Positions 5,544-35,393 of a DNA stretch of 37,484 nucleotides are shown one piece after another. The DNA is taken from the NCBI GenBank assembly GCA_947165405.1, contig CAMVAG010000001.1:1-37484 (forward strand). The letters are read 5' to 3'. The notes beneath the pieces are model-generated. The model saw only the letters and a list, made by a program, of their open reading frames with translations. It did no database searches and was not told where the DNA came from. How positions within the stretch are numbered: the stretch's first letter is position 1; each line of letters starts with the position of its first letter. A program made the position numbers and the translations under genes. This DNA is from an uncultured Selenomonadales bacterium (GTDB taxonomy: Bacteria > Bacillota > Negativicutes > Selenomonadales > Selenomonadaceae).

Positions 5544-6167
5544 ATGAAAAATTTTGTTAATCATTGGGCAACGGTCTCTTTGTTTCTCGCTGCGATTGTC
5601 GCGCTGACCATGAACTTTGCCTCATTCAATTTTACTCAAAACATTTTGCTTGCGCTTATCGTCTGCATGCTTTTGCATTTCTTCGAGGAATTCGGATTTC
5701 CCGGTGGCTTCCCTTATATCGGCATGAAAGTTTTGATGAACAGCAAGGAAAAAAATCCTGCGCGCCGGGGAGCAAATAATTTGAATTTGCTGTTCGGCAA
5801 CCGGGGATTTCTTTTTTTGGTGTACGTTTTGCCGCTCATGATTCCGAGCATAAGATTTCTCACGCTTGCCGCGATTTTGTTTTCGTTTTTGGAATTTTTT
5901 ATGCACGCGATACTTTTCAACCGCAAGCTCAAAACTTTTTACAATCCGGGATTAATCACCGCCGTATTCGGAATGACGCCGATAGCGATTTACTATTTGA
6001 TAAGCACACACGGACAAAATTTGTACGCTTGGCATGATTATATCGTTGCGTTCGTTTGGTGCATTGCGGTGTTCATGTTTTGTTTCAGGTCGCCGATTTA
6101 TTGGAGTCTCGGCAAGAAAAGCGGCTATCCTTTTACAAAAAGAGCTGCCTTCGGCTTTGCGCAATGA
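5544..6167 (+). CDS. HXXEE-domain integral membrane protein
   Basis: 207-aa polytopic ORF with HFFEEFGFPGGF (HXXEE motif). SD GGAGG lies 8 nt upstream of the ATG. Confidence 0.7.
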   Translation: MKNFVNHWATVSLFLAAIVALTMNFASFNFTQNILLALIVCMLLHFFEEFGFPGGFPYIGMKVLMNSKEKNPARRGANNLNLLFGNRGFLFLVYVLPLMIPSIRFLTLAAILFSFLEFFMHAILFNRKLKTFYNPGLITAVFGMTPIAIYYLISTHGQNLYAWHDYIVAFVWCIAVFMFCFRSPIYWSLGKKSGYPFTKRAAFGFAQ

Positions 6168-6173
6168 ACTCGA

Positions 6174-6210
6174 CAAAAAAACTTCCCCGTCAAGCGGCGG
6201 GGATTTTTTT
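6174..6210. terminator. bidirectional intrinsic terminator between convergent genes
   Basis: A7-cttCCCCGtcaagcggCGGGGa-T7. It overlaps the stop codon of the minus-strand transferase gene. Confidence 0.75.
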
Positions 6211-7879
6211 ATTTGACGTAAGGCTCGCCGTTGTAAATTCGCGGTCGCGCCTCAAAATTTTTGTTGATAATGCTTTTGCTCTCGTCGAAGGAAGTCGTGC
6301 GAATGTCCATGAGGTCGAGGATTGTGTGAATCAAATAATCCGTGCGATACGGTCGGTCGACAGCTGCCTCGATTGCAGAAATTTTTTCGGGATAACGTTC
6401 GCGAAATTCTTTCGACGCCCAAACAAGCGCGGGAATTTCAATCATGTGGACGTTGCCCGCTTCCTCCATAGAGTGTCCTGCGAAGTTACGACTCTCGTAG
6501 ACTTCTTCAGCGTGGTCGGAAATGTAAATCAAGACGGCGTTTTTATTTTCGAAGCGGCGGATAATTTCGTCGACGATAAAATCGTTGTACAAGACGGCGT
6601 TGTCGTATTCGGCAGTGCCTTGCCGCCAAAGCTCTTCGGGCTTGTCAATGTCTTTTGCGGAAAATTTTTCAAAGTCGGAAGGATAACGTTCCTTGTAAAT
6701 TGCATGCGTGCCGTAAAGATGAATCAGCCAAAAATTTTTCTCCCGCGCATGGTTAAGGTATTCGTCAAGCACGGGAAGCAACACGCCGTCGATTTGTCTT
6801 TGCCTCGCGATTTTGTCTTCCGCCTCGATAAAAAATTTTTCATCGCAACGAACCGAAAAATATTTATCAAAATTTCCCCACAAGCCGAGCGGACTCTGAT
6901 TCGACAGCCACACCGTATGATAATCCGTTCGGCGCAGGATATCGAAAAGATTTGCTTTAAGATACCAATCGCTTTGAGGCTCCTCTTTTTCCGCGAAAGT
7001 AAAAATTTTCGCCATGGCGGGCGAGGTGTTGTTGGCGCAAGCGATTGTGTCGTTGAAGCGAAAAATTTCTCCGCGTTCAAAGCGGGCACTCAAGTGCGGC
7101 GTCGTCGGCAAACGATAGCCGTAAAGTTGCATGTGATTGCGGTCGGTGGATTCGCCCAAGACAAAGACGACGTTCGGAATATTTGATTCGTCAGAAAGAA
7201 TTTTTTCGGTCTCAAGCTGCTTGTCCATCTCCGCGAAAATTTTTTCCTCGCTGCTTATCGGATACTGTGTCAATAAAAAATGGAGGTCATTTGCCGTGCG
7301 CCAAGCCGTCGTGTTGAAGAAAAGGGCATTCGTCAAGCCGAGCAAAATGTGAAATGCATTGTAAGCATAAACCACCAGCGGCAGGAACAAAATTATCAGC
7401 AAGTCAATCGTCAACCGCTTGAGTCTTTCCTCCGAGCGCGTCGCCAAAAATTTTTTCAAGCCGAGAATCAAAGCCGCCGTCAAGATTATGAACGCCGCGA
7501 TTGCCGCGAGGATTTTAAAATTCAAAACGTATTCTTGCAGGAAAGCTTGTGCCGTCAGAGGATTTGTTCCGAGCAAAATTTGCAAGGTGTCCATGTTCAG
7601 CGGCACGCCGAAATTTTTAATCAAGAAAATGTCCGCGACGAACCGGAGCGCGAAAAAAATTATCAGCACGGTTTGAATTACGCGGCGAAGTTTCGGAAAT
7701 AAAAAATGACTCGCCGCCGTGACGAAAAATATCGCCAACGCACCGAACCAAAAATTTATCGCGCCCGCCGAAATATTTTTATCAGCCAAGATTATCGACG
7801 AATTTAAAATTGTGAGGACGACGAAAAAAAATCCGTCCTCTCTAAGAATAATCACCCCCCCCCCGAACGATTGATTCAA
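6209..7879 (-). CDS. phosphoethanolamine transferase, EptA/sulfatase-like family (5' end disrupted or phase-shifted at a poly-G tract)
   Basis: N-terminal multi-TM region plus a periplasmic sulfatase-type domain (VFVLGESTDRNHMQLYGYRLPTTPHL, YISDHAEE). As assembled, the long frame can only begin at the TTG at 7879, which has no SD. The SD-linked ATG at 7904 is in another frame (see findings). Confidence 0.8.
   Translation of the reverse strand: MNQSFGGGVIILREDGFFFVVLTILNSSIILADKNISAGAINFWFGALAIFFVTAASHFLFPKLRRVIQTVLIIFFALRFVADIFLIKNFGVPLNMDTLQILLGTNPLTAQAFLQEYVLNFKILAAIAAFIILTAALILGLKKFLATRSEERLKRLTIDLLIILFLPLVVYAYNAFHILLGLTNALFFNTTAWRTANDLHFLLTQYPISSEEKIFAEMDKQLETEKILSDESNIPNVVFVLGESTDRNHMQLYGYRLPTTPHLSARFERGEIFRFNDTIACANNTSPAMAKIFTFAEKEEPQSDWYLKANLFDILRRTDYHTVWLSNQSPLGLWGNFDKYFSVRCDEKFFIEAEDKIARQRQIDGVLLPVLDEYLNHAREKNFWLIHLYGTHAIYKERYPSDFEKFSAKDIDKPEELWRQGTAEYDNAVLYNDFIVDEIIRRFENKNAVLIYISDHAEEVYESRNFAGHSMEEAGNVHMIEIPALVWASKEFRERYPEKISAIEAAVDRPYRTDYLIHTILDLMDIRTTSFDESKSIINKNFEARPRIYNGEPYVK
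7855..7864 (-). repeat. homopolymeric G10 tract (C10 on the + strand) inside the 5' end of the EptA-family gene
   Basis: Read directly: atcaCCCCCCCCCCgaac. It encodes the GGG in MNQSFGGGV. Confidence 0.95.
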
Positions 7880-7920
7880 AGAAAAATTTCAGTCTGCCGA
7901 GCATAAATGTACCTCTTGCT

Positions 7921-8574
7921 TCAAATTAAAAGTTCTTCGACGAGAGCCAAAATATTTTCGTGAATGTCGGTTGAGCTTCGCGCAAAACTTCTGTCGGCGC
8001 ATTTGACGACCTTCCAACCGAATTTCTGCGCGATTTTTTTGTAGACGTTGTAAATTTTATTCATGTATTCGGCGTCGCTTTCGTGAATGTCCTCATCGCG
8101 TCCGCGTTCCCTGCGGAGGAGGGCACAGATTGCGGGCGGCATGTCAAGGAAAATCGTCATGTCGGGTCGCGGCAAGCCGAAACGATCGTATTCCAAATCA
8201 TTGAGCCAAGCCAAAAATTTTGTGCGTTCTCTTTCGCTGTCAAACTTTGCAGCTTGATAGGCCATGTTCGAGCCGACGTAGCGGTCGCTCAAGACAAGCC
8301 CGCCGCTCTCGTAAAAATCTTTCCAGCTAAAAAAATTTGCGAATCTGTCAACGGCGTAGAAGGTTGCCGCAGCGTAGGGATTGACAGCCTCCGCCGTGCC
8401 GCCGAATTCTCCGCGCAAGTACATTTGTATCAACGCGGAAGATTCGGATTCGTAGTTGGGAAAACTCACACGCCTGACCTTTACTTCCAAATCGCGCAAA
8501 CGTTCGTAAAGTTTTTTCGTCTGCAACGCCTTGCCTGAACCGTCCGAGCCTTCAATAACAACCAACTTCCCCAT
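7921..8574 (-). CDS. tmk: dTMP (thymidylate) kinase
   Basis: MGKLVVIEGSDGSGKALQTK P-loop at the N-terminus and a DRY motif (LSDRYVGSN). The ATG at 8574 is preceded by AGGAGG; the longer ORF-track extension has no SD. Confidence 0.9.
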   Translation of the reverse strand: MGKLVVIEGSDGSGKALQTKKLYERLRDLEVKVRRVSFPNYESESSALIQMYLRGEFGGTAEAVNPYAAATFYAVDRFANFFSWKDFYESGGLVLSDRYVGSNMAYQAAKFDSERERTKFLAWLNDLEYDRFGLPRPDMTIFLDMPPAICALLRRERGRDEDIHESDAEYMNKIYNVYKKIAQKFGWKVVKCADRSFARSSTDIHENILALVEELLI

Positions 8575-8661: not shown

Positions 8662-8703
8662 AAAAAAAATCCTCGTCACTCGTCGAGCGGCGGGGATTTT
8701 TTT
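8662..8703. terminator. terminator-like hairpin downstream of the LysR gene
   Basis: A8-tCCTCG-15 nt loop-CGGGGa-T9. The right arm agcggcggggattttttt is identical to that of the 6174-6210 terminator. Confidence 0.45.
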
Positions 8704-9573
8704 TTACAGCGGCTCTTTGCAAAAATCTATGAATGCTTGCGCCGCCTTCGAGACGTACTTTTCTTTTTTCCAAGCAAGTCCTATATCGACAAATATCGGT
8801 TCGTAAAACGGCACGGCTTTTATGTCCGCCGCGTTTTCGCAAATGAAGTCCAACAAAAATGCTATTCCGACTTTGTGCGCGACGAGCCCTTTTATCGTGA
8901 CGATTTGGCTTGACTCAAGCACGGTGCGCGGCGAAATTTTCAGCGCGGACAATTTCTCTTGAACGACCTCGCGAAGATAGGCTCCTTCCTTCATCATGAT
9001 TAAATCGGATTTTGCAATGTCTTTGGGCGTTATCTTCGTTTTTTCGGCAAGCGGGCTGTCGTGCGCCACGCAAACCATCAGTTGGTTGCGGCTCATTTCC
9101 AATACGTTGAGATTCGGGGCGGATTCGGGGATGATTATAATTCCAAAGTCGAGTTCGTCGCTTTCCAATTTTTCGCGAATGGTCAGCGAGCCTTCCTCGA
9201 ACAACAACACGTCCAGTTTCGGATGAATTCTTCGGAAGCCGGAAAAAACTTTCGGGAAAAGATACGCGCCCATCATCGGCGGGATTCCGATTTTGATTGT
9301 GCCCTTTTGCAGTTGCTTGTAGTCGTTGACTTCAAGCACGGCGTCCTCGATGTTCCTCAAGGCAAGTTCGATTCGCTTGAGAAAAACTGTTCCTTCGGGC
9401 GTCAAGGTAAGTTGTTTTTGACTTCTGTCGAAGAGCTGAACGCCCAGTTCCGCTTCAAGTTTTTTTATTGCAACGGTGATGTTCGGCTGTGAAACTCGAA
9501 GTTTTTGCGCGGCGCGTGTGATGTTTTTCAGGCGGCTTGCCATCTGAAAATACTCAAGTTGTCTCAGCTCCAT
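8704..9573 (-). CDS. LysR-family transcriptional regulator
   Basis: N-terminal wHTH (MELRQLEYFQMASRLKNITRAAQKLRVSQPNITVAIKKLEAELG) plus a LysR substrate-binding-domain length. Divergent from the ABC ATPase gene. Confidence 0.9.
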   Translation of the reverse strand: MELRQLEYFQMASRLKNITRAAQKLRVSQPNITVAIKKLEAELGVQLFDRSQKQLTLTPEGTVFLKRIELALRNIEDAVLEVNDYKQLQKGTIKIGIPPMMGAYLFPKVFSGFRRIHPKLDVLLFEEGSLTIREKLESDELDFGIIIIPESAPNLNVLEMSRNQLMVCVAHDSPLAEKTKITPKDIAKSDLIMMKEGAYLREVVQEKLSALKISPRTVLESSQIVTIKGLVAHKVGIAFLLDFICENAADIKAVPFYEPIFVDIGLAWKKEKYVSKAAQAFIDFCKEPL

Positions 9574-35365: not shown

Positions 35366-35393
35366 AACCGTCATTCACGACGGTTTTTTTTTT
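35366..35393. terminator. bidirectional intrinsic terminator
   Basis: A8-gAACCGTC-attcac-GACGGTT-T8, between convergent genes. Confidence 0.8.

Follow-up and report, generated by a model that had tools for sequence, protein, structure and literature searches.

A phosphoethanolamine (PEtN) transferase gene with a run of 10 G residues near its 5' end lies on the minus strand of a 37,484-nucleotide (nt) stretch of DNA from an uncultured Selenomonadales bacterium (contig CAMVAG010000001.1, positions 1 to 37,484; this whole stretch is called the window below). Judging from the sequence, we propose that the G run acts as a hypermutable simple-sequence repeat, that the encoded CptA/EptC-like transferase is probably phase variable in rumen Selenomonadaceae, and that the window holds the gene in an OFF or low state. 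We give this reading a probability of roughly 0.65. What we established directly is how tract, starts, and frames are arranged, how each tract length affects the frame, which family the enzyme belongs to, the length polymorphism, and the codon anomaly.

Reading frames around the G tract

We read the minus strand from 8100 to 7700 and verified all coordinates that an earlier note on this DNA had given. The homopolymeric tract (G10 at 7855..7864, minus strand; C10 on the plus strand) is the candidate slippage site. It begins 15 nt into a long transferase open reading frame (ORF; 6209-7879, minus strand, 556 amino acids [aa] from TTG 7879) and occupies codons 14 to 17 counted from an ATG farther upstream (7902..7904, minus strand). 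This ATG is the start of the full-length (ON) protein and is the same start as in 564-aa relatives. It lies 16 nt past the stop of the thymidylate kinase gene tmk (TGA 7923-7921) and is preceded, at a distance of 7 nt, by the Shine-Dalgarno (SD) sequence AAGAGG (7912..7917, minus strand), whose anti-SD duplex of -7.3 kcal/mol falls at about the 5th percentile among random 20-mers. The long ORF is in the +1 frame relative to ATG 7904. With G10, direct reading takes this ATG through a 20-codon frame, MLGRLKFFFESIVRGGGDYS, to a TAG at 7844-7842 (frame at 7842..7904, minus strand), which would be the OFF-state product of the SD-linked start. With G9, the same ATG would read MLGRLKFFFESIVRGGVIILREDGFFF..., the exact N terminus of the 564-aa database proteins P0001, P0121, P0122, and P0125. 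A one-unit change toggles the product between 564 aa (G9) and a stop after 20 codons (G10). On the position of the tract, the SD-linked ATG behind tmk, the TAG reached under G10, and the full transferase reached under G9, the earlier note was borne out.

The earlier note had also held that the long ORF can start only at a TTG without an SD sequence. The missing SD was confirmed: the 20-mer upstream of this TTG (7877..7879, minus strand), the earliest possible long-ORF start under G10, has an anti-SD duplex of -2.8 kcal/mol, equal to the random mean. The word "only" did not hold, as a GTG directly 3' of the tract (7853..7855, minus strand) is also in the transferase frame, and is so at every tract length. 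The first G of this codon is the last G of the tract, and the public 548-aa call for the window (P0127) starts there. The poly-G 5' of the GTG gives an anti-SD duplex of -11.5 kcal/mol with G-U wobble; it lies right against the start codon, the spacer being 4 nt or less. The stop of the 20-codon frame lies only 11 nt beyond the GTG. We also rejected the idea that TTG 7879 serves by design as a second start when the tract is G10, its anti-SD pairing being no better than random.

The G10 tract is a real, nonrandom feature, far beyond chance. The next-longest run of G or C in the window has just 5 bases, and run counts drop about 10-fold with each added base. Counted over 25 long ORFs, glycine in the window is least often encoded by GGG (7.6%, versus 59% for GGC), and none of the 71 other Gly-Gly pairs in the long ORFs uses GGG-GGG. 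The codons that flank and lengthen the run are minority choices as well (CGG, 12.5% of Arg; GTG, 16% of Val). Retention of a tract against codon bias or drift, as seems to be the case here, would be the signature of selection for mutability.

The slippage mechanism, how fast and how reversibly it acts, how complete the OFF state is, the substrate, and the selective agent are inferred. With G9 or G12, translation would start at the SD-linked ATG 7904, pass through Arg-Gly-Gly in a short cytoplasmic N-terminal tail into transmembrane (TM) helix 1, and yield the 564-aa enzyme. Slipped-strand mispairing during replication would add one G. With G10, the frame of ATG 7904 would end after 20 codons, leaving the SD-less TTG and a GTG pressed against the tract, and expression would be off or strongly reduced until a further slip restored it. 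The OFF state could leak in three ways: ribosomes might start at the GTG at a low level, they might re-initiate once the short ORF has been read, or RNA polymerase might slip on the G run. The switched phenotype is presumably PEtN on lipopolysaccharide (LPS; inner-core heptose phosphate or lipid A) or on another periplasmic target. A change in PEtN would alter surface charge and, through it, susceptibility to cationic peptides or bacteriocins, the adsorption of phages, or recognition by antibodies.

Tract length in alleles and orthologues

To compare tract length in related genomes, as the earlier note had proposed, we used assembly consensuses from short-read metagenomes. Proteins are numbered P and loci L. 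The 90%-identity cluster around the window's protein contains two kinds of product. ON-type proteins, with the N terminus MLGRLKFFFESIVRGGVIIL, comprise the four 564-aa proteins named above and the 457-aa P0126 and come from about 24 contigs together. The 548-aa calls (P0124, P0127 from the window, and P0128) come from one contig each, 3 in total. The tract is G9 in L081 to L084 and G10 in L085, L086, and the window. Over 2,903 nt, L083 (G9) and L085 (G10) have no mismatches, and over 2,886 nt, L081 (G9) and L086 (G10) have one; in both pairs the tract is the only indel. The tract therefore changes while the rest of the gene stays unchanged. For reference, L081 and L082 (both G9) differ by one mismatch and no indel over 9,808 nt. 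When the tract is removed, the alleles fall into three backgrounds that are 30 to 88 substitutions apart per 1,680 nt, and G10 occurs in all three, which indicates recurrent change at this one site. Apart from the tract, the OFF alleles show no damage in their 548 codons, as would be expected if the changes were recent and reversible. The comparison thus found G9 and G10 in otherwise identical DNA from different samples. Separately, the C-terminal part of the ON-type P0126 is out of frame after ...AVLYND (it reads LSSTKLSAASKIKTPS), either at a second frameshift site or through an assembly error.

Beyond the window's lineage, an orthologue with 76% aa identity, adjoining the same hydrogenase cytochrome b gene but with a different upstream gene, has GGT-G8 in frame in one locus (L166, AGGGGI) and G9 out of frame in another (L167), with identical flanks. 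In a third lineage (about 69% identity), all three lengths occur. L170 has G9, which places the gene in frame behind a TTG with an SD sequence (anti-SD, -9.3 kcal/mol), and G10 in L087 breaks the frame. In L171, which has G8, the enzyme is joined to another TTG, read in a different frame (anti-SD, -5.7 kcal/mol); the resulting leader, MRGVILFERLEKISEHRRTRRGG, is present in five distinct database proteins. These five G8-type proteins stand against three of the G9 type, so that non-G9 forms are the majority in this lineage. In a fourth lineage, L168 has G9, and in the 99.45%-identical L169 the tract is broken to G7AG and still in frame. More distant species representatives (L003 and L007) have AGGGGA at the tract position. 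A scan of metagenome contigs returned only two close relatives that include the 5' end, L087 (G10) and L114 (no tract). The nearest species representatives from the genome-contig scan, L001 and L002, have only 74% identity and were used as outgroups, not for tract counting. The pattern suggests that several lineages have converted a conserved Gly-Gly into an extended G run, which is kept despite codon bias and occasionally lost. Together, the G9/G10 allele pairs and the tracts retained in diverged orthologues support the proposal of the earlier note that the window shows the OFF or reduced state of a slipped-strand switch.

We rejected the idea that every N-terminally truncated homologue call is an OFF allele. 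The 549-aa P0012 comes from L169, which is in frame: its tract is broken by substitution, its length is the same as in L168, and the short call reflects a gene finder start placed after the G run. Gene finders put the start just after or inside the run in several cases (L168 1242-1250 versus L169 1191-1197; P0012, P0018, and P0134). Such starts are misplaced because the poly-G resembles a ribosome-binding site, and database N termini of the family are therefore unreliable.

Several observations weigh against a phase-variable switch. Homopolymer consensus error is possible for any single contig; L171 has a coverage of 5.5x, and the contig of L085 starts 47 nt before the tract. In the window's lineage, OFF contigs are few beside the ON contigs (3 against about 24), and occasional consensus error would give the same pattern. 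The tract is absent in L001 and L002 (GGGGCGG) and broken in L169; since it has been lost or was never present in these loci, the switch must be dispensable. A wider phasome in the organism would be conjectural, as only one tract is visible in the 37-kb window. Finally, with GTG 7855 in frame at any length behind a G-rich pseudo-SD, OFF may not be null.

Consensus error could be extended to the claim that the tract is G9 everywhere, that the contigs with G10 (elsewhere G8 or G10) are artefactual, and that the transferase is constitutively in frame. All of the differences are indeed a single base at a homopolymer in short-read metagenome assemblies, OFF contigs make up only about 3 of 27 in the window's lineage, and homopolymers are a known source of spurious indels, which in Illumina data arise especially in tracts longer than 14 bp (PMC8808543). 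The tracts here, at 8 to 10, are shorter than that problem range, and G10 sits in midcontig both in the window's 37-kb contig and in L086. Variants are also spread over three lineages, assembled in different studies with different programs (MEGAHIT k141, SPAdes NODE, and scaffolds), with non-G9 forms prevailing in the third, and the ON/OFF pairs carry no other indel. Consensus error leaves unexplained why a rare-codon G run is retained at the same codon position across orthologues that are 69 to 76% identical, and even a fixed G9 would be intrinsically slippage prone. We consider this explanation unlikely. The length could also truly vary without switching the enzyme off, if a GTG start with the poly-G as an SD surrogate, re-initiation, or transcriptional slippage kept the enzyme expressed; the tract would then tune the level of the enzyme or its N-terminal tail at most. 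This fits the always in-frame GTG with its strong anti-SD pairing and the nearby OFF-frame stop, the choice of that GTG by gene callers (P0124, P0127, and P0128), and the location of all conserved family features 3' of the tract (the CptA profile match begins at residue 25, and D23 and G24 are invariant). In the third lineage, moreover, G8 joins the ORF to a second TTG with a modest SD. However, the pseudo-SD abuts the GTG, a poor geometry for initiation, and poor initiation at very short SD spacing is established knowledge. The start codon after the tract is not conserved in other lineages (TTA in L170, ATC in L166, and CTGG in L168), and internal initiation is therefore not the conserved design. 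Tract-less relatives all keep an SD and an N-terminal tail of about 16 codons, arguing that the tail and its start are functional, and the truncated product would lose most of the basic residues of the tail. We regard variation without an off state as improbable.

A nonadaptive hotspot seems less plausible still: the G run would be an accident of the conserved Gly-Gly, and G10 would be an ordinary, recent loss of function on the way to a pseudogene. The Gly-Gly ahead of the motif L-[KR]-E-D-G-F-F-F is ancestral and widespread in the family, and the run has been lost without harm in L001, L002, and L169. Yet the codon bias against GGG should erode the run, which persists at 8 to 10 where the flanks have diverged. 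The OFF alleles are also identical to the ON alleles outside the tract, with no further lesion, and the same design arose in a homologue from Synergistota (see below). We judge this very unlikely, and phase variation by slippage in the G tract remains the reading that we prefer.

The enzyme, its neighborhood, and similar tracts

The transferase body (6209..7855, minus strand) has five N-terminal hydrophobic segments and a sulfatase-fold domain. The predicted segments lie between residues 25 and 190, in line with a topology of about five TM helices. Residues 235-526 match Pfam Sulfatase (PF00884; 5.2e-48), and PF08019 (EptA_B_N) had no match to the transferase in the Pfam scan. The catalytic-type motif GEST.R..M.LYGY aligns with the same motif in Escherichia coli EptC (5zzu), and the SDH motif (D463-H464) and H477 are invariant in the family alignment. 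Among curated families, NCBIfam CptA matches best (NF007933; 258.4 bits over residues 25-562); this score is below the equivalog cutoff of 404, and CptA is thus the best-matching subfamily only. NF012179 scores 245.9 bits against a cutoff of 900, and EptA and MCR models score much lower than CptA. Among solved structures, the best match is E. coli EptC (PDB 5zzu; E value of 1.6e-46, residues 238-563). The gene thus appears to encode an intact CptA/EptC-like PEtN transferase, nearest to the heptose-phosphate type, with its substrate presumed. The earlier note had assigned the gene to the EptA family; the PEtN transferase superfamily stands, but by profile and structure match the enzyme is closer to CptA/EptC than to EptA proper.

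The tract encodes Gly-Gly in a weakly conserved basic N-terminal tail of about 22 residues, ahead of the L-[KR]-E-D-G-F-F-F entry into TM helix 1. One or two extra glycines are apparently tolerated there, because relatives show GG, GGG, or GGGG at this position. Homologues come from rumen Selenomonadaceae metagenome-assembled genomes (MAGs) and from goat, sheep, and deer metagenomes. Selenomonadaceae, like other Negativicutes, are diderm Firmicutes whose outer membrane contains LPS, and an LPS-modifying enzyme is therefore expected in this host.

Upstream, tmk (7921..8574, minus strand; a 217-aa call in relatives) is probably cotranscribed with the transferase gene, and no terminator-like site was found between the two. 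A GC-rich hairpin with T runs on both strands (6184..6203), 5 nt past the transferase stop, is the likely terminator of the tmk-transferase unit. In strains of the P0001 type (L081 6967-9885 and L082 6677-9595), a 972-aa protein replaces the HXXEE-family gene that follows the transferase gene in the window (5544-6167). This protein has no Pfam matches, and its gene has internal repeats with a period of about 108 nt (self-matches of 69% over 420 nt). A/T runs in the window are longest at 8697-8705 (T9), 8662-8669 (A8), and 35384-35393 (T10). The T9 and A8 runs lie inside the 129-nt gap that separates tmk from a LysR-type regulator gene and that probably holds the promoter of the tmk-transferase unit; T10 sits between convergent genes. 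L083 and L084 differ (T8 versus T9) in a run within the corresponding gap of those loci, which may or may not be the counterpart of one of the window's runs.

Independent recurrences came from loci that had been fetched by C-terminal motifs, irrespective of tracts. A Fretibacterium sp. MAG (Synergistota; CALCEM010000008.1) carries a homologue with about 36% identity (L011 2832-2875, on the same contig as L095 2365-2375). There, an SD-linked ATG (GAGGGGAG-ATG) is followed by 11 codons and then G11, and the ATG frame ends after 18 codons as assembled; with G10 instead, it would read MKNNLYVKLLKGGGALLNKF... into the full ORF. Judged by its sequence, this locus repeats the window's design in a second phylum. 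In a Selenomonadales paralogue (L028 3278-3288) and a Helicobacteraceae homologue (L058 2826-2836), a midgene G11 splits the transferase ORF into two frames, and L133 has an in-frame G10 (2632-2641). In the unbiased loci, roughly 7 of 16 G/C runs of at least 8 lie inside transferase ORFs, which make up roughly 29% of the DNA; these are too few for a claim of enrichment.

Tracts were also seen in other genes near transferase homologues. In Selenomonadaceae MAGs, a S-adenosylmethionine (SAM)-methyltransferase-like gene directly 5' of a PEtN transferase paralogue carries poly-C, either C8 in frame (L013 2460-2467; ...KEKYNNPPRSNLIFDSF...) or C9 and frameshifted (L027 626-634), with flanks otherwise identical. 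This is possibly a second contingency gene, and its position beside the PEtN transferase is suggestive. About 3 kb 3' of a transferase homologue in Selenomonadales, an FkbM-like methyltransferase gene has a conserved poly-G (G9 at L005 6146-6154, reading NGGGGY; G11 at L090 5686-5696, reading NWGGGY), in frame in both as assembled. A conserved cassette of about 100 nt with terminal poly-C was found at L156 2260-2267, L157 1725-1735 and 5454-5461, L159 2251-2267, and L150 5855-5863 (lengths of 8, 11, 8, 17, and 9, respectively). The poly-C is followed at once by ATTTTGCAAAG...TAACTTTG, which is Bacteroidetes promoter-like, and the cassette stands upstream of a gene for a PEtN transferase homologue (about 27% identity) and also of one for a leucine-rich-repeat (BspA-like) lipoprotein. 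It looks like a promoter-located phase variation module.

A broader and more tentative reading, which we hold to be doubtful, is that at least two phyla of diderm rumen and gut commensals, Bacillota (Negativicutes, Selenomonadaceae) and Synergistota (Fretibacterium), have independently placed poly-G switches in the same N-terminal tail. These switches would belong to an unrecognized envelope phasome that includes the methyltransferases with C8/C9 and G9/G11. Within this joint reading, the third Selenomonadaceae lineage may be a three-state device, with G9 reading from the SD-linked TTG, G8 from the second TTG with its leader, and G10 being off.

Comparison with known phase-variable systems

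Repeat-mediated phase variation of LPS decoration is textbook knowledge for mucosal pathogens such as Neisseria, Haemophilus, and Campylobacter. For Selenomonas, Veillonella, Negativicutes in general, or rumen commensals and MAGs, we found no report of repeat-mediated phase variation in the open-access literature, which is not proof of absence. If the proposed switch is true, diderm Firmicutes in a dense, phage- and peptide-rich ecosystem would use the same bet-hedging device at the outer membrane, and comparison of near-identical contigs could reveal such loci directly in metagenome assemblies. The many PEtN transferases that MAG catalogues list as "N-terminally truncated" or "frameshifted" would then be partly biological states and partly gene-caller artefacts, the latter because poly-G is taken for a ribosome-binding site. 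This would bear on the prediction of polymyxin and cationic peptide susceptibility from MAG gene content.

In the phasomes of Campylobacter and Helicobacter, G/C tracts of 8 to 11 lie in the 5' parts of surface structure genes, with one-base ON/OFF differences among clonal relatives; each of these genomes has tens of such tracts, and their mismatch repair is incomplete. The window gene resembles them in the range of its G tract and in its one-base ON/OFF difference, and the Helicobacteraceae homologue (L058) itself has a frameshifting G11. Unlike these genomes with their tens of tracts, the 37-kb window has one. E. coli EptC (CptA) shares the architecture of five TM helices and a sulfatase fold with the window enzyme, which scores below the CptA cutoff (258 versus 404). 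To our knowledge, control of E. coli eptC is transcriptional (PhoB/PhoR), and the gene lacks a repeat tract.

Within the Bacillota, a 5' poly(A) in inlA of Listeria monocytogenes cuts a surface protein short within a few codons; the truncation is reversible, the frameshifts arose independently of one another, and 5' homopolymers have been described as general gene inactivation devices (Orsi et al. 2010, PMC2831843). The window gene shares the phylum and the 5' homopolymer frameshift with inlA, which differs in its tract base (A), its monoderm host, and its target, a surface protein rather than an envelope-modifying enzyme. In Neisseria meningitidis, the pilin phospho-form transferase gene pptA is phase variable according to Warren & Jennings 2003, as cited in PMC10525099. 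As far as that citation goes, pptA is like the window gene in being a PEtN transferase family member under homopolymer-mediated phase variation. It differs in its type IV pilin target and proteobacterial host, and no pilin context is seen around the window gene.

The closest known system is eptA (lptA) of Neisseria gonorrhoeae and N. meningitidis, in which a poly-T8 in the 5' coding region switches a PEtN transferase at a rate of about 1e-4. The change from ON to OFF is an insertion that leaves a 62-aa product, and the phenotype is altered surface charge and resistance to cationic peptides (PMC6111236, PMC10525099). Both genes belong to the same superfamily and have a 5' homopolymer in which a single-base slip leads to early truncation. 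They differ in that the Neisseria tract is T8, the truncated product has 62 aa, and the enzyme is the lipid A transferase EptA, whereas the window gene has G9/10 at codons 14 to 17, a product of 20 aa, and CptA/EptC as its best match. The Neisseria host is a proteobacterial pathogen, whereas the window's host is a rumen commensal of the Bacillota (Negativicutes). Switching has been measured in Neisseria eptA; for the window gene, we infer it only. By this analogy, the proposed mechanism would match that of Neisseria eptA/lptA, and the new elements would be the host phylum, the lifestyle, the tract base, and the enzyme subfamily.

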